Assembly (NCBI GenBank): GCA_030393635.1
Contig: GCA_030393635.1_4352.1
Length of the DNA stretch: 44,340 nt
Direction: 5' to 3' (one strand)
From: a phage
A program made the position numbers and the translations under genes. The notes under the pieces were generated by a model. The model made no database searches. It was not told the origin of the DNA and saw nothing but the letters and a program-made list of their open reading frames with translations. The stretch's first letter is position 1. The number at the start of each line of letters is the position of its first letter. Of the stretch, positions 463 through 40,846 are shown piece after piece.

Positions 463-692
463 CCGAATTTCAGTCACGCGTATTTACGGCAGTCGTTTCG
501 TTAACACGTAAAAAAGGGTCGTGCAGCGTTATCGACTTGCGCCGTAGTTATTTTAAGTACTATAGTTCAGCCATTATTGAAGGGTCGTTGGAGGTACTGG
601 TTAAATCCGGTATCGTGAAAAATGTTGGCGGGAAATATAGCGCCGTTGCTGAAGTTCGCGGAATGACCGCTACTTTAGAAGACCTGGAATAA
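459..692 (+). CDS. Hypothetical protein with acidic C-terminal TLEDLE tail
   Basis: 77-aa ORF; its ATG overlaps the upstream stop (ATGA); C-terminus is TATLEDLE. Confidence 0.5.
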   Translation: MTEFQSRVFTAVVSLTRKKGSCSVIDLRRSYFKYYSSAIIEGSLEVLVKSGIVKNVGGKYSAVAEVRGMTATLEDLE

Positions 693-751
693 AAGAAAGC
701 CCCGACGCGGTGAACGCCGAGGCCAAATTACTTGCTGAAGGAATACACGAT

Positions 752-2992
752 ATGTCCGATGTGATTTTATCCTACTCGTGGTCCCGTCGCAACGCGCGGG
801 CAGAGAAAAAGGATATAAACGTCAGAACCACACACACAGCAACACTTGACGACCTGAAAGAGTTAATTCAGCCGCTAGATGCTGTTCGTGACGGGATTAA
901 CCCTAAGACTGCCCCCGGCTATATCACAGCCGCGTGCGACTCTATGCACAGCACCGTAAAAGACCCGGAAACCGGCGACTTTAAGCAAGCGCGCAAAGGC
1001 TTCTTCTATCGCTGCGACGCGTCTGTAAGCAAATCGTCGCTGGCGTATCTGGACTTCGACAGTGCGACGCCGGAAGAGTATCAGGAAGCTGTGCGTCTGG
1101 TTAAGCGCAGCCGTAAAGCCATGTGCCTCTACACTACGGCATCGCATACCGACGAATCGCCGCGCTTTCGCGTCGTCATGCCGCTGGTGCGCCCGGTTGA
1201 AGGCGGTGACATCATCCGTGTTCGCCATGGATTACTTGAGCACTTCTTCAAAGGCATGGGCGCTGACCGCAGCGGGTTCACTCTTTCGCAACCGATGTAC
1301 CTGCCGCCGGTCGGCTCTACCGTTATCTGGTCGCGCCGCAACGACCTGATTGACCCGGACGAGTTACTGGAAGGCATCCCGACCGTTGACGTTAGCAGCG
1401 CATCGGATTACCAGATACCGGAAGAACTACGCACCGCGTTTACTGACGCGTTCGAAGCACTGGCGTTCGAGTACGGCGGCATCATGACACCGCGTGGCCT
1501 AAAAATGCCAGCCACACCAGAGCATGCAGAAAACTACAGCGACCCGACGCCGCGTCCGGACGACTTCCTGCTGTGTTTCCCGCGTGAAGGATATGAAGCG
1601 CCGAACGTAACCATGATCCACGACACCGACATTACGGCGACCGAAGGCATGTCGCCGAAAGAGGTGTGGAAATACGCGTGCGATGCGACCGGGCTGCCGT
1701 TCAGTGAAGTCGCTGAGGCAATCGGCTGGGGTGCGCGAGAGTCCGTTTCATGCAGCCTTGACGACCTGGAAGACGACGAGGACCCAGAGGAGGACGAGTT
1801 ACCTGAACCGGTAAAGGCTGATTTTGTCGTCGAGGGGTACATGCCGTCGGATTGTATCTGGGACATCGTGGGGGAATCTGGCACGTACAAATCGTTCTAT
1901 ACGCTGGGGATGATGTACCTGAGCGCCGCCGGATACCGGTTTGCGGGTGCGGATACGCAACGTTGCCACCATTTCTATATTGATGGGGAGGGTGGTGCAG
2001 CTACACGCACCCGTATTGATGCGCTCGCAGCTAAGTATGGCGAGGAAGGTAAAGATTATGTACATGTCATCGATATGGGTGAAGTCGGAAAACTGAAAAG
2101 CCTGATTAAGTTGATGCGTGAAACTGCAGGCGACGAACCAATCGGCATGGTCGCATTCGACACCCTCAACCAGACGCTGGCCCTGACGATTGATAAGTTC
2201 GACGAGAACAGTTCATCGACGGCAATCGGCATGGGTAAAGTTATTGCCATCCTGAAAGAAGTACGTGATGCGACTAAAGCCGCGGTAGGCGTTGTCCACC
2301 ATACGCCGAAGGGCGGAAAGAAAGCCCGTGGTAGCGGGGCGCTGTATGCGGGTGTTGACGTGGAACTGACAATTGAACGTGCAACCGACCGTCAAATAAA
2401 CGTATACCACTCAAAATTTAAGCACGGGCCCCAACAGAAGACCGTTGGCATGGTGCTTGAGTCGGTACAGTTCCGTGAAGCGCCGCCGCCGAAAGAGTAC
2501 CGCGCGGTTGAGTTCCTCGGTAGCACAGAGGAATACGGCCCAATCGTAAACCTCGACCTGCCTGAGCCGCACAAGGCGCTTGTGCTGATGCCGTGGGGCT
2601 TCGAGCCGTTCAAAACTGACGAGGAGAAAGAGCGGGAAGAAGGGCTGACAAAGGAAGGTAAAGAAAACGTAAAGAATGCTGTAAAACGCGGGAAGGATGA
2701 AGGGCGTAAGGAATCAATACTCGCCGCACTGGAAGACCTGCAACAGTCCGATGACACCGGACGAGGTTTTACGCAACGGCAGATAGTGGCGAACTCAGGC
2801 GACCACGCCATCACAAACTACCATCTTGAGAAGATGCTGAAAGACGGTGAGTTGATGCTCGGGTGCGATGTTAACGGTGAAGTTATACCAGGCACATACC
2901 GGATACCGGAAAAGATGGGTGACAGATTAAGGCCAAAGACAATATACGAGCCGAATGAAATGCTGACAGTGACAGAGGAGGATTTGGAATAG
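752..2992 (+). CDS. DNA primase/helicase (N-terminal primase-like region plus RecA-fold ATPase)
   Basis: ORF 710..2992 (GTG at 710; ATG at 752 has GAAGGA 9 nt upstream). Walker A GESGTYKS, Walker B-like VAFDTL, VVHHTPKGG motif; acidic linker DDLEDDEDPEEDE; C-terminal TEEDLE. Confidence 0.75.
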   Translation: MSDVILSYSWSRRNARAEKKDINVRTTHTATLDDLKELIQPLDAVRDGINPKTAPGYITAACDSMHSTVKDPETGDFKQARKGFFYRCDASVSKSSLAYLDFDSATPEEYQEAVRLVKRSRKAMCLYTTASHTDESPRFRVVMPLVRPVEGGDIIRVRHGLLEHFFKGMGADRSGFTLSQPMYLPPVGSTVIWSRRNDLIDPDELLEGIPTVDVSSASDYQIPEELRTAFTDAFEALAFEYGGIMTPRGLKMPATPEHAENYSDPTPRPDDFLLCFPREGYEAPNVTMIHDTDITATEGMSPKEVWKYACDATGLPFSEVAEAIGWGARESVSCSLDDLEDDEDPEEDELPEPVKADFVVEGYMPSDCIWDIVGESGTYKSFYTLGMMYLSAAGYRFAGADTQRCHHFYIDGEGGAATRTRIDALAAKYGEEGKDYVHVIDMGEVGKLKSLIKLMRETAGDEPIGMVAFDTLNQTLALTIDKFDENSSSTAIGMGKVIAILKEVRDATKAAVGVVHHTPKGGKKARGSGALYAGVDVELTIERATDRQINVYHSKFKHGPQQKTVGMVLESVQFREAPPPKEYRAVEFLGSTEEYGPIVNLDLPEPHKALVLMPWGFEPFKTDEEKEREEGLTKEGKENVKNAVKRGKDEGRKESILAALEDLQQSDDTGRGFTQRQIVANSGDHAITNYHLEKMLKDGELMLGCDVNGEVIPGTYRIPEKMGDRLRPKTIYEPNEMLTVTEEDLE

Positions 2993-28612: not shown

Positions 28613-29662
28613 TTAAGCACCGACACCAGTTACCAGGAAGGCAATCGGTACATGCTTACGGTCCACAACGCGGTTCCAGTTGGAGGCGTTAGCCAGGTCC
28701 TGCCAGGAAGCAGAGCGGGCTACAGTCTCGGTGCCGTTGCCAGTAATTACCGCGCTGGTGAAGCTGTAGCCCAGCGGGTGCAGCAACCAGGTCTTACGGG
28801 TCCACAGAGTTTCAACGCCACCGCCGTTACCACGGGACGCTTCGCGTTCGTATTCCAGCGGGTTGGACGGGTTGCCTTCACCATAACCGATAGCACCGTT
28901 GCCGAAGATGATGGAGATGAACTTGCGGCTGCCGCCAGTACCGACTACGGTCATGCTGTCGTCAACAATCACACGGTATCCCTGGTAGGTGGCGAACAAG
29001 GTGTCGTTGTCGGCGTCTTTGATGAAGTCAATAAGCTGCTGCTTACGCGCCTGCGCATAAACGAAGCTGTGCATCGCGATAGCGCCCAGCACCTCACCAC
29101 CGTTACCCATAAGAGCATCGCCCATAGTCTGAGTGGCGTCGATGAACGCACCTGCGTCGAAGCCCAGAGTAGCAGACACGTCGATAACCATGTCGTTCTG
29201 CGTATGGTAAGCATCGGTAGCGGTTACGTTGTCGTTGTACAGACCGAGCGCGGTAGCAATAAGACGGCGTTGTGCCTGACGCTGCCAGAAGTTATCCAGA
29301 CGGGACGCTACGGATTGCAGCGGATTCTGGCCGGTAAGTTCAACGGTGAGGTCTGCCTGACCAAAACCTTCGTTCAGGTATGCAACGCGCGCCATCATTT
29401 CGCCGGTCTGCACGTTACGCGGGGTAGCGATGTCCTGATACACATCGTTCGAGTAGTTCGGCTCGATAGAAGTATCAATCGCTTTCCAGAAAGGGATGTT
29501 GGCGATGTTGGACGGACCGCGAGCAATCTCTGCGGCGTACGGAGTCGGAGTCAGAATACCGGACTGGAAGAACGCGGTTTTTTCTACCGGGTCCTCGGTC
29601 ATATAAGACGCCAGGACCGGGATGTTGCCAGTTACGATATCGCCGATAGTGGTAATTGCCAT
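28613..29662 (-). CDS. Major capsid protein
   Basis: 349-aa ORF downstream of a coiled-coil scaffold gene. Confidence 0.75.
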   Translation of the reverse strand: MAITTIGDIVTGNIPVLASYMTEDPVEKTAFFQSGILTPTPYAAEIARGPSNIANIPFWKAIDTSIEPNYSNDVYQDIATPRNVQTGEMMARVAYLNEGFGQADLTVELTGQNPLQSVASRLDNFWQRQAQRRLIATALGLYNDNVTATDAYHTQNDMVIDVSATLGFDAGAFIDATQTMGDALMGNGGEVLGAIAMHSFVYAQARKQQLIDFIKDADNDTLFATYQGYRVIVDDSMTVVGTGGSRKFISIIFGNGAIGYGEGNPSNPLEYEREASRGNGGGVETLWTRKTWLLHPLGYSFTSAVITGNGTETVARSASWQDLANASNWNRVVDRKHVPIAFLVTGVGA

Positions 29663-29664
29663 TA

Positions 29665-30366
29665 TTATTTCCTCAGGGCTTTAAGTTGCCGTTCAAATTC
29701 GGCAGGGTTCGATTTATACAGAGCTAAACGCTCCGCTTCACTCATGTCTTTAAACGCTGGTGCGGCCCCGCCGCCTTTGCCACCGGAAGCCCCGCCGCCG
29801 GAAGCTGCATTTGCTTTAATCAAATGCGAAAACGCTTTGTGTTCGCGCAGGTATTTGCGAAACTGTTCCGGGTCAGTCGTGATTACGTTGCCATCTGCAC
29901 CGACAAACTTAGTAACCACGTCATCACCTTCGAACTCAGTCTTAACGAACGGAGCAAGAATGTCTACTGCTTCCGGGGTAATAAAGTCACCCGCGAAAGA
30001 GCCTAACACTGCTTTACGTTCGCTGCCGAGGATGCGCTCTGCCATTTTGGAGATGCGACCATCTTTCTCGGCTAACACCGGGTCATACTGGCTACGAATC
30101 GTCTTTTCGAACTCGTCCATCTTACCAGCGGCTTTTAACGCCTCCTGGTGTGCGCGCTGCCGTTCTTCTTCGGCCTCTTTTGCTTTGCGAGCGGCTTCTT
30201 TCTTCTCCGCCAGCAATGCTTCCTGATTGGCCTTAAGACCAGCGACTTCTTTCTCAATCAGCGCCTGAACTTCTTCAGCGGTGAACATTTTTGGCGCGTC
30301 ACCGCCACCAGCTTTATCTTCTGCTCCAGCTTCTTCCTGGAACGGATAACGTAAAAAACGATTCAT
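29665..30366 (-). CDS. Head scaffolding protein
   Basis: ORF 29665..30420 with ATG at 30366; K/E/A-rich coiled-coil, directly upstream of the capsid gene. Confidence 0.6.
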   Translation of the reverse strand: MNRFLRYPFQEEAGAEDKAGGGDAPKMFTAEEVQALIEKEVAGLKANQEALLAEKKEAARKAKEAEEERQRAHQEALKAAGKMDEFEKTIRSQYDPVLAEKDGRISKMAERILGSERKAVLGSFAGDFITPEAVDILAPFVKTEFEGDDVVTKFVGADGNVITTDPEQFRKYLREHKAFSHLIKANAASGGGASGGKGGGAAPAFKDMSEAERLALYKSNPAEFERQLKALRK

Positions 30367-30448
30367 AGTCAGTATGTCCCCTGGACGTTGGAACCCGGGC
30401 CACCCGGATTTACATGTCAAGAATAAATTATTCCAACATGCAAGGCAA

Positions 30449-30712
30449 CTATTCCAGAATATTCCTCACGTAATCCTGCAACATGAACACTTTCAGCCTC
30501 AGCTGCCGTACGCATTCGGCGTTCTTAACATCGATAGCTAAATCTTCGTCAGCGTCGCTACTTGGCAGCGCCAGTTTGCACGGCGGCTGCATCATCGTCG
30601 TATCCGGGGATGGAATTGGCGTTGGCGACGGCGCGGGACTTGAGCAGGACGCGAGCATCGTCGAAAGTGCACACGCTGCGGCCAGGCGTTTTAATGTACT
30701 TAACGACTTCAC
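30449..30712 (-). CDS. Outer-membrane spanin (Rz1-like lipoprotein)
   Basis: Signal peptide with lipobox LASC and Pro-rich SSPAPSPTPIPSPD; starts inside the i-spanin gene in another frame and extends past its end. Confidence 0.55.
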   Translation of the reverse strand: MKSLSTLKRLAAACALSTMLASCSSPAPSPTPIPSPDTTMMQPPCKLALPSSDADEDLAIDVKNAECVRQLRLKVFMLQDYVRNILE

Positions 30713-30944
30713 GGGTAATCACCTCTGATTTCGTCTTGCCTTCGTTATCAGCGGCGGCGGCCTTTGATTCGTCCTGCTGCTGCCGTTGTGTTTTCTTCGC
30801 TAACTCAACCTGTGCTTTCTGCTGTTGCTGCGAAACGAGATTCGCCCGGCCTTCGGTCCAGCCGATGCGGTATTGATAGTATCCGTGTGCGTATAACAGG
30901 ATGATGAAACATGCTCCCGCTACGACAGTTGCTTTAAGATTCAT
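30558..30944 (-). CDS. Inner-membrane spanin (Rz-like)
   Basis: 128-aa ORF; N-terminal TM helix, Q/K/E-rich coiled-coil, C-terminal periplasmic domain. Confidence 0.6.
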   Translation of the reverse strand: MNLKATVVAGACFIILLYAHGYYQYRIGWTEGRANLVSQQQQKAQVELAKKTQRQQQDESKAAAADNEGKTKSEVITREVVKYIKTPGRSVCTFDDARVLLKSRAVANANSIPGYDDDAAAVQTGAAK

Positions 30945-31194
30945 GTTTCTCCTTTCTCGATAAGTAAAGCCCCGCCATAAAGCGGGGCGCTAGTCCTTAT
31001 CATTTAAACATAGAAACGGCGTAATCTCAGTAAACCAGTTACTTTTTACACAAGCAATAGAGTACGGCCCTTCCGAACGCGTCAGCGTAACTACACTCAG
31101 GACTTACGTCCAGCTCCGTTACCTGCCCGCGCCGCGGTCGCTTGTTCATACTTCACAAGCTCAGGTGGAGCTTAGCACATTTTTAGTGAAAAGT

Positions 31195-31210
31195 CAACTA
31201 TTCGAATAGT
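31195..31210. promoter_or_regulatory. Perfect 16-bp palindrome AACTATTCGAATAGTT
   Basis: Read directly; contains the CTATT/AATAG half-sites in everted order, about 55 bp upstream of the -35 of the promoter at 31264. Confidence 0.5.
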
Positions 31211-31297
31211 TTATTCCAACATTTACAATTGAGTGGAATAACCGGAATAGGTGAATAAATAGTTTGCGCACCCCAACATAATAGGGTACTATTCACT
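31209..31297 (+). repeat. Copy A of an ~89-bp direct repeat carrying a promoter/operator
   Basis: Near-identical to 31599..31687; TTATTCCA...TGGAATAA inverted repeat, TTGCGC-17-TACTAT promoter, palindrome AATAG-GGTA-CTATT (31280-31293). Confidence 0.7.
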
Positions 31298-31321
31298 CAC
31301 ACCAACAAGAGGCGAGAAGAA

Positions 31322-31573
31322 ATGATTACGAAACCAGCAAAACATCGTGTACGGGACCTTGGTTCTTTTCTTAAAAAAGAGTATGAACAGGCCGAATTAC
31401 GCGGCGACATTTCGGCGTATATTGAGCTTCAGCAGATGCAACTGGACGCGCAAGAAGACGGGGATATGTCTCTATCCGCCGCGGTCGGCAGAAGTATGCG
31501 CCAGATTCGTGAAAAGTATGACCGAAACGTCTGGAATAGAGAGATTAACTTAACCCAAGAGACAGGGTATTAA
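31322..31573 (+). CDS. Hypothetical protein (83 aa)
   Basis: ORF with GAGGCGAGAAG RBS, flanked by its own promoter copy and terminator. Confidence 0.55.
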   Translation: MITKPAKHRVRDLGSFLKKEYEQAELRGDISAYIELQQMQLDAQEDGDMSLSAAVGRSMRQIREKYDRNVWNREINLTQETGY

Positions 31574-31604
31574 AACTGAGGCCCCTTTCGGGGCCTCAGT
31601 TTAT
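31574..31604 (+). terminator. Intrinsic terminator
   Basis: CTGAGGCCCC-tttc-GGGGCCTCAG stem followed by TTTATT. Confidence 0.7.
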
Positions 31605-31687
31605 TCCAACATTTACAATTCGGTGGAATAACTGGAATACTTAAATAAATAGTTTGCAAACACCAATATAATAGGGCACTATTCACT
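31599..31687 (+). repeat. Copy B of the ~89-bp direct repeat carrying a promoter/operator
   Basis: TTGCAA-17-CACTAT promoter with palindrome AATAG-GGCA-CTATT (31670-31683), upstream of the PAPS-reductase-like gene. Confidence 0.7.
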
Positions 31688-31709
31688 TAACTTGAACAGG
31701 AGGCATTAT

Positions 31710-32522
31710 ATGAAACATGTAATCAGTTTTTCAGGCGGCAGAACATCAGCGTACACAACCCTTGAAGTGCTTAAACTCTACCCCGATGCTGAGGTCATCT
31801 ATATGGATACTGGGGCGGAGCACCCCAAGACATACGAGTTCATCCGCAATTTTGCTAAGCACTTTAATATTGCGGTGACGTGCCTGCGGGTGGTCCCTAA
31901 CCCAGAAATGCGTAAGGCCAGTACCTATGAAGTCCTTAGTGTAGATGAAATAGGTCCTGACCTGGAGCCGTGGCGCAGAATGCTGCGTAAGTATGGGCAC
32001 CCATACGTCGGCGGCGCTTTCTGCACAGACCGGATGAAGACGGTGCCGTTCACCAAATACTGCGACGAGAAATACGGCAAAGGAAAATACGACAGATGGC
32101 TGGGGGTCCGCTGTGACGAACCTAAGCGCCTGGTAAACAGGAAAGATGGGTTCCACTATCTTGCAGACATAAGTGATTTTGAGAAACAGGACATAATCGA
32201 GTGGTGGGCGAAACAGGAATTTGACCTTGGTATAGAAGAACACTTAGGTAACTGTGTTTTTTGTATCAAAAAGAGCCTGCAAAAAGTAGCACTGGCGGCT
32301 AAGGATGAACCTCAGTTAGCCGAACAATTTTGGGGAATGATTCAGGAAGAAGACATAAAGCGGGATAAGGTTATGTATAGGTCGAACAGAACCCTCGGCG
32401 AGGTCATCGCACTGTTTCGGGATGAGCGCCGTGAGGAGCTTGCATCTCGTATACGCTCAATGCGGCAGTACGACACGGGGTCATGCAGTGAAAGCTGTGA
32501 AGCGTTTTCCGTTTCTGAATAA
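31710..32522 (+). CDS. PAPS reductase-like (PP-loop ATP-pyrophosphatase family) protein
   Basis: ORF 31692..32522 with ATG at 31710 after AGGAGG; N-terminal SFSGGRTS PP-loop motif; C-terminal cysteines CVFC and CSESC. Confidence 0.65.
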   Translation: MKHVISFSGGRTSAYTTLEVLKLYPDAEVIYMDTGAEHPKTYEFIRNFAKHFNIAVTCLRVVPNPEMRKASTYEVLSVDEIGPDLEPWRRMLRKYGHPYVGGAFCTDRMKTVPFTKYCDEKYGKGKYDRWLGVRCDEPKRLVNRKDGFHYLADISDFEKQDIIEWWAKQEFDLGIEEHLGNCVFCIKKSLQKVALAAKDEPQLAEQFWGMIQEEDIKRDKVMYRSNRTLGEVIALFRDERREELASRIRSMRQYDTGSCSESCEAFSVSE

Positions 32523-32523
32523 A

Positions 32524-32550
32524 ACTAAGGCCCCGTAATGGGGCCTTTTA
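32524..32550. terminator. Bidirectional intrinsic terminator
   Basis: AGGCCCC-gtaat-GGGGCCT stem with T-run. Confidence 0.7.
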
Positions 32551-33012
32551 TCATTCTGGCTTAGCGACCTTCGCCGCTTTGCTGACAGCCTCTACACCAT
32601 CAGCATCAGTAACTTTGACGAAGTATTCGCCTGCCGCGTTAACCGTCAGAGACAAAGCCTCTTCTGGGGCGTTGACCACTTCCTTCCCGTCTTTGTACCA
32701 TGTCAGCGCATATGGTGCTTTACCCGCTTTAACTTCTACGGTGATAGTTGCGCTGCCGCCCGCCAGTTCCTGGTCCTGCGGTTGCACAGAGAAATACACA
32801 TCGCCCGCGTCCGCCAGATACGGAATCTCATAAAGCATGCTCGCCGCAGGTAGTGCAATACCGGTTTTATCTGCAAACGGCATATCGTCTACCGGGGTAC
32901 CTAGTACACTTTCGTCTTCGATGAATACCACGTTCTCACCAGAACCGGACACTCGGGCGTACTGGACTACGCGACGCGATGGTACATCAGTTACTTTGAA
33001 AAAGCCCATCAT
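32551..33012 (-). CDS. Ig-like domain protein
   Basis: 153-aa ORF; APYALTWYKDGKEV...GEYFVKVTDADG Ig-like pattern similar to 27891..28241. Confidence 0.5.
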   Translation of the reverse strand: MMGFFKVTDVPSRRVVQYARVSGSGENVVFIEDESVLGTPVDDMPFADKTGIALPAASMLYEIPYLADAGDVYFSVQPQDQELAGGSATITVEVKAGKAPYALTWYKDGKEVVNAPEEALSLTVNAAGEYFVKVTDADGVEAVSKAAKVAKPE

Positions 33013-39809: not shown

Positions 39810-40310
39810 TCATTTAACAGCCCTCCCGATTGCCTCAGCCTCCCGCCACGGTTTACCGTCGAACAGAGCAAGACGACCGACGGTACGGCGGCGCAGGCCA
39901 AGTAACGGTTTGCCGTGCTGGTTGATGAACAGCGCCAGCTTAGCCCGCAGCGTCGCAGTATCGCCGGAACGCAGCGCCTTACCTGTGCCAGTAGTTGCTG
40001 CAATCACGCCAGCCCCCGCGTTGTAGACCAGGTCGCACACTGCATCAAACTGCGCCTGTGTAAGTGAATGGTGCGCCGCCGCATCAACCGCGGCTACGGC
40101 CTTAGCCATATCGCGATTCAGTAACAGGAGGCCTTGTCCGGGGGTGATGGTCTTACCAGGTGTTACGTCGGGCCCATAGTGCCCATAGCCAATAGTCAGG
40201 TACTTCTCGTTCGGCGTAGCGCGATACGCAGTTCCGCGGAATCCCTCAAACGCAGCGGTGAAATGCAATCCATTATCTGAGATATTTCGAGACACGCTTA
40301 TATCCTCCAT
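39810..40310 (-). CDS. Endolysin, T4 lysozyme-like (GH24)
   Basis: ORF 39810..40346 with ATG at 40310; FEGFRGTAYRATPNEKYLTIGYGHYG matches the T4-lysozyme family core. Confidence 0.8.
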   Translation of the reverse strand: MEDISVSRNISDNGLHFTAAFEGFRGTAYRATPNEKYLTIGYGHYGPDVTPGKTITPGQGLLLLNRDMAKAVAAVDAAAHHSLTQAQFDAVCDLVYNAGAGVIAATTGTGKALRSGDTATLRAKLALFINQHGKPLLGLRRRTVGRLALFDGKPWREAEAIGRAVK

Positions 40311-40545
40311 ATGACATCCACGCCTGACGAATCTGGCGTAGCGCAACTAATGTGATTAATGTCTCTGGCAGAGTAGGTGACATGCTGCCCTGTAACAGGT
40401 GGATACATCCGGCAGCGCAGACGATAGCAGTCAGGATGTAGAGCACCCGACCAAATAGCCCGTCGTCAACGCTGGGATGATACACATTAAACAGCGATGT
40501 GCCCCCGATTGCCAGCATACCGCCGAACCAGAATAACTCATTCAT
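40273..40545 (-). CDS. Holin-like / antiholin-like membrane protein
   Basis: In-frame ATG at 40545 after GAGGAGG; two predicted TM helices; overlaps the endolysin start. Confidence 0.5.
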   Translation of the reverse strand: MNELFWFGGMLAIGGTSLFNVYHPSVDDGLFGRVLYILTAIVCAAGCIHLLQGSMSPTLPETLITLVALRQIRQAWMSYGGYKRVSKYLR

Positions 40546-40846
40546 CTGTGCCTCCTCGACGTGCGATGTATTCTCCGGCGACGATACCGGAGAGGCGGGA
40601 ATAGATGGGCATCCAGAGAATAGCGATAATAAATCCCAGGCCAGCGATTTCACGCTCACCGGTAATGCCAAACCATTGAGCCGCGAGAGGCGCACCAAAT
40701 ACGGCGCAGGTGAAGCCAGTTGCGATAAAGCAGAAGCCATCGATAGGGCCAGAAATAACGGACTTATGTTGTCGTAGTCCGATAACCCCTCCGGCTAGTG
40801 CGGCAGCGAGAAGCCAGCCTGTTACTGTTTCAGTAAATTTATCCAA
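40538..40846 (-). CDS. Holin
   Basis: 102-aa ORF with 2-3 TM helices and charged C-terminus, immediately upstream of the endolysin. Confidence 0.6.
   Translation of the reverse strand: MDKFTETVTGWLLAAALAGGVIGLRQHKSVISGPIDGFCFIATGFTCAVFGAPLAAQWFGITGEREIAGLGFIIAILWMPIYSRLSGIVAGEYIARRGGTDE

Follow-up and report, generated by a model that had tools for sequence, protein, structure and literature searches.

The two overlapping minus-strand genes found at 30449..30944 very likely encode a two-component spanin of the Jersey family, a function that we assign from the anatomy of the two products, from the architecture of their genes and from the protein families into which they fall; most likely the phage uses this pair to disrupt the outer membrane of its host at lysis. 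The window, by which we mean the whole stretch of 44,340 nucleotides that was analysed, is nearly genome-length, and over 29600..32600 its identity to phiWAO78-1, to Kagunavirus NRG857CP3 and to many others is about 95%. The source phage is a Kagunavirus (Guernseyvirinae), a virulent siphophage of E. coli. The features of the spanin locus are the following:

30558..30944, minus strand: i-spanin gene (ATG start, 387 nt, 128 aa), with a predicted N-terminal membrane helix and a helical, charged, predicted periplasmic domain that includes Cys92
30876..30932, minus strand: i-spanin transmembrane segment TVVAGACFIILLYAHGYYQ, codons about 5-23, from hydropathy
30949..30954, minus strand: i-spanin Shine-Dalgarno AAGGAG, read from the sequence; a ribosome-binding site is annotated in Shashou too
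30449..30712, minus strand: o-spanin gene (GTG start, 264 nt), with an 87-aa precursor and a predicted 65-aa mature lipoprotein
30644..30712, minus strand: o-spanin signal peptide and lipobox (MKSLSTLKRLAAACALSTMLAS-C23), by the lipobox rule, wholly within the i-spanin gene
30718..30725, minus strand: o-spanin Shine-Dalgarno GAGGTGAT, 5 nt before the GTG; Shashou has a ribosome-binding site at the equivalent place
30558..30712, minus strand: dual-coding overlap of 155 nt, made of i-spanin codons 78-128 plus stop and of o-spanin codons 1-52 in the +1 frame

Family assignment and previous knowledge

The i-spanin matched phrog_2536, 'Rz-like spanin', over its full length (5.9e-55), and the o-spanin matched phrog_1267 over residues 8-86 (4.4e-18) and phrog_5672 over residues 41-87 (3e-30); weaker matches of the pair to two further spanin PHROGs were also found. 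In Pfam neither protein reached threshold, the best hit being DUF2514 (E 0.037, 14.5 bits vs a cutoff of 26), and the o-spanin had no Pfam match at all, so none to the lambda Rz1 family; searches of NCBIfam and of PDB sequences gave no significant match for either protein. Thus, the pair appears to be a functional analogue of lambda Rz/Rz1 and not a member of its sequence family. The sequence-only reading, which had called the two products Rz-like and Rz1-like, holds in the functional sense, as the PHROG spanin families indicate, but the relationship that these names might suggest found no match in Pfam, NCBIfam or PDB.

The Jersey family is the largest overlapped spanin family in the census of Kongari et al. 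2018 (BMC Bioinformatics 19:326; PMC6139136), with Jersey, SETP3, SE2, K1G, K1H, K1ind1-3 and others as members. An overlap of 155 bp and the o-spanin residues Cys45 and Cys67 are constant in it, and the FSL SP-031 type, with an overlap of 8 bp, is its separated branch (PMC6139136). The spanin locus studied here shows 91.9-92.6% nucleotide identity to K1H and K1ind2, and 73% to SETP3. Judged on its sequence, namely on this similarity, on the 155-nt overlap and on Cys45 and Cys67, the pair is a direct member of the Jersey overlapped family, with which it has in common an i-spanin of 128 aa, an o-spanin of 87 aa and the two helices with a linker in the i-spanin. The signal peptide of the source phage is the 'STMLAS-C23' variant, whereas K1ind2 and many others have 'LLTLSA-C22'.

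For the Kagunavirus group, the literature already records the gene pair, its 155-base overlap and its distance from the holin and endolysin genes. In the K1ind2 record (GU196280, 2010), the 387-nt and 264-nt ORFs are annotated 'putative spanin; overlapping gene', and the Shashou record gives 'i-spanin' and 'o-spanin, contains N-terminal lipobox'. That the spanins of close relatives lie apart from the holin/endolysin genes was stated in print in the Schulenberg announcement (2019), and Golestan has its spanins at ORF7/8 and its lysis genes at ORF66-68 (PMC7203180).

Anatomy of the i-spanin

Only one stretch of the i-spanin is hydrophobic, residues about 1-23 (Kyte-Doolittle, 19-residue mean 1.76, best window from residue 1), and beyond residue 30 no 19-residue window on the same scale exceeded 0.41. 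From this hydropathy profile, and from the start of the first AF2 helix at residue 3, we infer a type II topology, in which the remainder of the protein would be periplasmic. Residues 30-128 are 29% charged (D/E/K/R). The AF2 model, obtained in single-sequence mode, consists of helices 3-84 and 94-107; its pLDDT was 81-94 over residues 1-30 and about 80-94 over the first 60, and confidence was low past residue 85, including the C-terminal 40 residues and helix 94-107. Because of the single-sequence input and of the too uncertain C-terminus, this model is unfit for a fold search. In an alignment of 9 diverse homologues, Cys92 and a NAN-I-GYD motif were invariant.

Anatomy of the o-spanin

The N-terminus of the o-spanin reads MKSLSTLKRLAAACALSTMLAS-C23-SSPAPSPTPIPSP. 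Its n-region is basic, with K2, K8 and R9, and is followed by a hydrophobic core and by the lipobox L-A-S-C, which ends in Cys23; the residue at +2 is Ser, not Asp. The signal was judged by hydropathy and by a PROSITE-type pattern rule, {DERK}(6)-[LIVMFWSTAG](2)-[LIVMFYSTAGCQ]-[AGS]-C, with K or R within the first 7 residues. A scan of the whole window with this rule, over six frames and every start codon, gave the 87-aa ORF as the only credible match; the six others, at four loci, are short ORFs antisense to large genes and without a hydrophobic core. According to established rules, the lipobox predicts cleavage by signal peptidase II and lipidation of Cys23, and the absence of Asp at +2 predicts sorting by Lol to the inner leaflet of the outer membrane. 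The anatomy that had been read from the letters, an Rz-like inner-membrane protein next to an Rz1-like lipoprotein whose signal should be recognisable on the 87-aa ORF, is in agreement with the one N-terminal hydrophobic segment of the i-spanin and with the lipobox LASC and Cys23 found here by rule and hydropathy.

The mature o-spanin has nine Pro, a proline-rich linker and two more Cys, Cys45 and Cys67. Its C-terminus (…QLRLKVFMLQDYVRNILE) is amphipathic and charged, and the best hydrophobic window of the precursor is found only in the signal peptide. A unimolecular spanin of the T1 gp11 type was also considered and was ruled out, as the o-spanin has no C-terminal membrane segment.

The overlap and the evidence for coding in two frames

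The two ORFs, 30558..30944 and 30449..30712, are exact and overlap in different frames, as first described: the o-spanin frame is +1 relative to that of the i-spanin, 155 nt are shared and, in line with the claim that the o-spanin extends beyond the i-spanin stop, its ORF runs 109 nt past it. The architecture of the pair is overlapped, not embedded.

In a single sequence an open second frame is weak evidence, since about 5% of 20,000 synonymous versions of the i-spanin, generated with the codon usage of the phage, kept the +1 frame free of stops over the shared stretch, and it is for the comparative data to decide. On this expectation for one sequence, and on the fact that the annotators of buks, pink and NTEC3 missed the ORF altogether, one could argue that the frame is open by chance and that the locus encodes the 128-aa membrane protein alone. 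To this explanation, which the comparative data refute, we attribute next to no probability. An o-spanin ORF with a lipobox was present in 58 of the 58 IMG/VR loci collected with the i-spanin alignment, always in the +1 frame and adjoining the i-spanin, and in 13/13 GenBank relatives, which include Kagunavirus, Jerseyvirus, Serratia phage Smarc3 and Salmonella phage St162, the second frame was open and had a start codon, an N-terminus resembling a signal sequence and a lipobox Cys. The presence of this ORF in related phages, on which the sequence-only reading had made its interpretation depend, thus extends to all the relatives examined (71/71), down to about 50% protein identity and with nucleotide divergences that reach about 30% and more.

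The length of the overlap is 155 nt in most of the IMG/VR loci and 152, 158, 173, 194, 41, 35, 14 or 8 nt elsewhere. The lipoprotein character is maintained even where signal peptides differ entirely in sequence, of which the St162 type, the pink type and VIPECOMC04 are examples, and Cys45 and Cys67 are conserved among the relatives; a subset of Jerseyviruses has Asn at lipobox position -2 (LLNGC), which is outside the PROSITE rule.

To analyse substitutions by codon phase, the locus was compared without gaps with Jerseyviruses whose nucleotide divergence is 23-31%. In the 109-nt segment past the i-spanin stop, which belongs to the o-spanin only, changes fall mainly at o-spanin third codon positions (15/8/2 and 17/8/2 by phase; 17/8/2 vs f2SE), and 29/35 residues are identical at 23-25% nucleotide divergence, which again argues against a frame open by chance. 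In the overlap, substitutions favour the third position of the i-spanin; this bias suggests that the i-spanin dominates the constraint there, and that the signal and the linker of the o-spanin absorb the changes.

A different arrangement was observed in vB_VIPECOMC04, in which an HNH endonuclease gene lies between the i-spanin and the o-spanin genes. The C-terminus of the i-spanin is replaced, the signal peptide of the o-spanin is new (MRLPILLLVIGC...), and what is left of the former i-spanin tail can still be read in its original frame. This phage is a live example of the transition from overlapped to separated architecture, which was discussed for T5 and Shivani (Kongari 2018, PMC6139136).

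The start codon of the o-spanin in deposited annotations

In many GenBank records the o-spanin is called from an internal ATG, as a product of 41-48 aa, with the loss of signal and lipobox, and PHROG 5672 is based on the shortened form. If these gene models were correct, only the 41-48-aa product (MMQPPCKL... or MQPPCKL...) would be made, and the 'signal peptide' upstream would be an accident of the alternative frame. CDSs of 126-147 nt are in fact annotated in Bas76, Ro145c2YLVW, fEg-Eco06, f2SE and S100, PHROG 5672 is a 47-position family of the short form, and the chance openness of about 5% calculated above would leave room for such an accident. However, a product without a signal sequence could not exit the cytoplasm, and the long frame, with its start, basic n-region, hydrophobic core and lipobox Cys, is found in 71/71 relatives. 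Moreover, the Shine-Dalgarno ahead of the GTG is strong, near-perfect, the phrog_1267 alignment begins already at residue 8, and wrong start codons are a common cause of missed spanins (Kongari 2018, PMC6139136). We consider it very improbable that the short form is the only product.

The value of the spanin finding lies, therefore, in correct annotation and not in discovery: the gene model of the o-spanin, an 87-aa lipoprotein precursor, has to start at GTG 30712. Since the deposited 41-48-aa 'spanin' has no export and lipidation signal, automated pipelines propagate a non-functional gene model.

Genome context and the distant lysis cassette

The genes that define the context of the spanins are listed below:

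29665..30420, minus strand: head scaffolding gene (phrog_206 at 6.5e-56; likely start ATG 30366), immediately downstream of the spanins
39810..40310, minus strand: endolysin (PF00959 at 4.6e-26), ORF open to 40346
40273..40545, minus strand: second holin/antiholin (phrog_2508 at 1.5e-32)
40538..40846, minus strand: holin (phrog_2359 at 3.4e-29)

The position upstream of the scaffold gene, and the distance of about 9 kb from the holin/endolysin cassette at 39810..40846, had both been pointed out from the sequence and were found to be correct. The scaffold CDS, annotated as 702 nt in relatives, is followed by the major capsid gene. From the end of the endolysin to the start of the i-spanin there are 8,865 nt, and the spanins lie downstream of the lysis cassette on the same strand; the stretch in between includes several genes named in relatives (head morphogenesis, Hoc-like decoration) and, in the source phage, also two plus-strand genes. 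With two holins, an endolysin and a two-component spanin, the lysis set of the source phage is complete.

As the genes are unlinked to holin and endolysin, the contextual support on which the recognition of spanins usually relies is missing. The distance of 8.9 kb would fit a different function, in which the pair, like T5 Llp or the Cor proteins, modifies the envelope or excludes superinfecting phages and does not serve lysis, and this would explain its location among head genes; in the same direction point the Pfam search, in which no sequence homology to lambda Rz/Rz1 was found, and our literature search, which retrieved neither a published experiment on the Jersey spanin family nor an experimental lysis function for it. 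We regard such a role as improbable. A lipoprotein gene in the +1 frame that starts inside, or at the end of, the gene of a type II membrane protein is the signature of a two-component spanin; the architecture of the partners co-varies, with overlaps from 8 to 194 nt and the genes always adjacent in the 58 IMG/VR loci, and a periplasmic Cys is conserved in both proteins. In addition, the window contains no other spanin candidate, and near the endolysin no lipoprotein with a C-terminal membrane segment, and unlinked spanins are established in T4 (PMC6139136). Lysis thus seems to us by far the better explanation of the pair; its arrangement leaves the understanding of lysis unchanged, since unlinked spanins were already known both in T4 and in Guernseyvirinae.

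Comparison with known spanins

Like lambda Rz/Rz1, the pair joins an inner-membrane protein of type II topology, whose periplasmic domain is helical, to a small outer-membrane lipoprotein that is rich in proline and has its gene in the +1 frame, and both partners have periplasmic Cys. By contrast, sequence homology between the two systems is not detectable, lambda Rz1 is wholly embedded in Rz whereas the o-spanin of the source phage exceeds the i-spanin stop by 109 nt, and the lambda pair ends the S-R-Rz/Rz1 cassette whereas the pair described here is 8.9 kb from holins and endolysin. The o-spanin is also longer than lambda Rz1 (65 aa when mature), and the Jersey o-spanin has predicted C-terminal helices, unlike lambda Rz1 (PMC6139136).

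P2 LysB/LysC, the prototype of the overlapped architecture, is similar in that the o-spanin gene begins inside the i-spanin gene and extends past its end. The P2 spanin pair adjoins the P2 holin and endolysin. It belongs to another sequence family, and is a separate overlapped family in the census (PMC6139136). T4 PseT.3/PseT.2 shares a comparatively large o-spanin with a predicted C-terminal helix, but its architecture is separated and its sequence family is again a different one. The proteins of the FSL SP-031 / St162 type (Guernseyvirinae) are homologous and occupy the same genomic position; their genes overlap by 8-41 nt only and are 'separated' according to Kongari 2018 (PMC6139136), the i-spanin is without the C-terminal tail of roughly 10 residues, and the signal peptide of the o-spanin is unrelated.

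Proposed mechanism of lysis

The sequence supports a translation of the o-spanin independent of the i-spanin, from the GTG inside the i-spanin gene and from its own strong ribosome-binding site. From their place as the opening genes of the scaffold/capsid block, the spanins are expected to be expressed late, together with the head proteins, and they would build up without harm until holin triggering. If lambda Rz/Rz1 and T4 PseT.3/PseT.2 are taken as a guide, the i-spanin and the o-spanin would bind each other in the periplasm through their C-terminal parts, each partner may form disulfide-linked homodimers through its conserved Cys (Cys92 in the i-spanin, Cys45 and Cys67 in the o-spanin), and the complex would bridge the periplasm through the meshwork of the murein. 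At lysis, the holins (40273..40846) would release the endolysin (39810..40310) and the wall would be degraded; the spanin complexes could then fuse the inner and the outer membrane, removing the last barrier to the release of the phage.

A conserved leader and hairpin upstream of the spanins

Upstream of the i-spanin, the following elements were recognised:

30989..31197, minus strand: promoter-like site and conserved leader of about 170 nt, containing a doubtful 36-aa ORF (31039..31149)
31197..31169, minus strand: sigma-70-like site, with TTGACT at 31197..31192, a 17-nt spacer and TG-n-TAAGCT
30969..30988, minus strand: GC-rich hairpin GCCCCGC-TTTATG-GCGGGGC, then TTTACTTATC, from the terminator scan, directly before the spanin ribosome-binding site

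Judging from its motifs, the sigma-70-like site is the presumed start of transcription, and the hairpin is terminator-like, with a modest T-tract. The leader is 95-99% identical in 180 phage records from two genera, whereas the adjacent spanin genes are about 75-79% identical in the Salmonella Jerseyviruses that share it; in VSt10, for example, identity is 97.3% in the leader and 75.0% in the spanin locus. Over 27 colinear loci, 14.8% of the columns were variable in the leader vs 61.3% in the spanin genes.

The leader folds more stably than shuffled sequence (z = -3.07), and so does a divergent version from a Jerseyvirus (-2.57). A stem-loop is found at the position of the hairpin in all three leader types compared. 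As a joint MAFFT alignment misaligned the hairpins of the three types and gave no consensus structure, they were aligned by type: in leaders of the Kagunavirus/Jerseyvirus type the pairing of the stem is kept by compensatory changes (CG/GC/AU/UA at one pair), and the same is true of the pink/St162 type (GC/AU). In the consensus structure of the leader, which was derived from the same alignment on which it was evaluated, compensatory changes were observed in 8/35 pairs, mostly separating just two clades, and 99% of cells were paired vs 30-51% in slid controls. A scan of 30800..31400 against Rfam, with E up to 10, returned only chance-level matches. The 36-aa ORF at 31039..31149, which the records of some relatives annotate, was discarded as a gene: its variation has no codon phase and it is absent from leaders of the Jerseyvirus type, so that it is probably non-coding.

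The spanins could be the first cistrons of the head-gene block, and the leader an undescribed cis-acting RNA that times the expression of spanins and head genes in Guernseyvirinae; we put this forward as a tentative proposal, more doubtful than probable. As to its action, the leader may be a regulated terminator, an antitermination site, or an element for RNA processing or stability of the late head operon. A second copy next to the holin/endolysin genes would have suggested co-regulation; over the whole window, including the region upstream of that cassette, no further copies of the leader motif (TTCGGAAGGGCC) or of the promoter-like site were found beyond chance.

A repeated promoter-like element

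Further upstream, a direct repeat of 90 nt is present at 31208-31297 and 31598-31687, with 88% identity between the copies. One copy precedes each of two plus-strand genes, 31322..31573 and the PAPS-reductase-like gene 31692..32522, and in each the 8-mer TTATTCCA is present as two inverted copies that flank a TTTACA hexamer. From its sequence, this element looks like a putative operator. The 8-mer TTATTCCA occurs 6 times in the window vs 1.2 expected, and one of these occurrences is in the intergenic region between the o-spanin and the scaffold gene.

A Conserved Leader Precedes the i-Spanin Gene

Upstream of the i-spanin gene (30558..30944, minus strand) we observed, in order toward its ribosome-binding site (RBS), first a promoter-like site, then a leader some 170 nt long and, last, a GC hairpin:

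30989..31197, minus strand: promoter-like site (TTGACT, 17-nt spacer, TG-n-TAAGCT) and leader
30969..30988, minus strand: GC hairpin, directly 5' of the i-spanin RBS
31039..31149, minus strand: 36-aa ORF within the leader

Across 180 phage records the leader was 95–99% identical, including in Jerseyviruses whose neighbouring spanin genes are just ~75–79% identical; variable columns made up 14.8% of the leader versus 61.3% of the spanin genes. The predicted fold was more stable than that of shuffled sequences (z = −3.07), and compensatory changes preserve pairing in the hairpin and in several predicted helices. Rfam gave no match for the leader. This element could be a regulatory leader or a terminator for the late head operon.

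As for a coding function, the 36-aa ORF is carried as a ‘hypothetical protein’ by several relatives, in the records of Bas76, Shashou and fEg-Eco06. Variation within it falls evenly on the three codon positions (6/4/3 sites) and the Jerseyvirus-type leader does not contain it; on these two grounds it is probably not a gene.

A Plus-Strand Insert and Its Repeats

Between a Hoc-like head gene, located upstream, and the minus-strand spanins downstream, two genes are inserted in reverse orientation:

32551..33012, minus strand: Hoc-like head gene
32527..32547: bidirectional terminator-like hairpin, bounding the insert
31692..32522, plus strand: PAPS-reductase-like gene (PF01507 at 1.7e-08; phrog_33262 at 4.4e-103)
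31322..31573, plus strand: 83-aa ORF, with no match in the family search
31208..31297 and 31598..31687, plus strand: 90-nt direct repeat, two copies, 88% identical

The insert is missing from most close relatives (query coverage 59–71%). One repeat copy lies directly 5' of each plus-strand gene and, in each copy, a TTTACA hexamer is flanked on both sides by an inverted pair of the 8-mer TTATTCCA, an arrangement that resembles a promoter carrying an operator. The 8-mer occurs 6 times in the window versus 1.2 expected (685..692, minus strand; 30428..30435, plus strand; 31211, 31234, 31601 and 31624), and the 12-mer TTATTCCAACAT occurs 3 times versus 0.21 expected. One copy of TTATTCCA sits in the 82-nt gap from the o-spanin stop to the scaffold start, as part of the palindrome GAATAA-A-TTATTC.

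Annotation and Variation of the o-Spanin

In the window, GTG 30712 is the correct initiation codon of the o-spanin. In many deposited genomes the protein is called from an internal ATG as a product of 41–48 aa, with neither signal peptide nor lipobox (for example PQ850632, MH051334, PQ141284, NC_073200 and KU951146; loci L001, L002, L004, L007 and L008 among the relatives compared), matching window positions 30449..30595. PHROG 5672 (47 positions) is a family made from this truncated form, and the gene is unannotated in the buks, pink and NTEC3 records.

A subset of Jerseyvirus o-spanins (L007, L009 and the IMG/VR loci L047, L049, L054–L060 and L063) reads FLLNGC, with Asn at lipobox position −2, a residue that the PROSITE lipoprotein rule does not allow for there; in close relatives the equivalent stretch is LLSGC.

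In Escherichia phage vB_VIPECOMC04 (PQ423993), the i- and o-spanin genes are parted by an inserted HNH homing endonuclease gene:

529..1593 of locus L013: region of the interrupted spanin pair

Its i-spanin, of 119 aa, differs at the C-terminus, the signal peptide of its o-spanin is new (MRLPILLLVIGC...), and a remnant of the old i-spanin tail is still readable in the former frame. The spanin pair has been changed from overlapped to separated.
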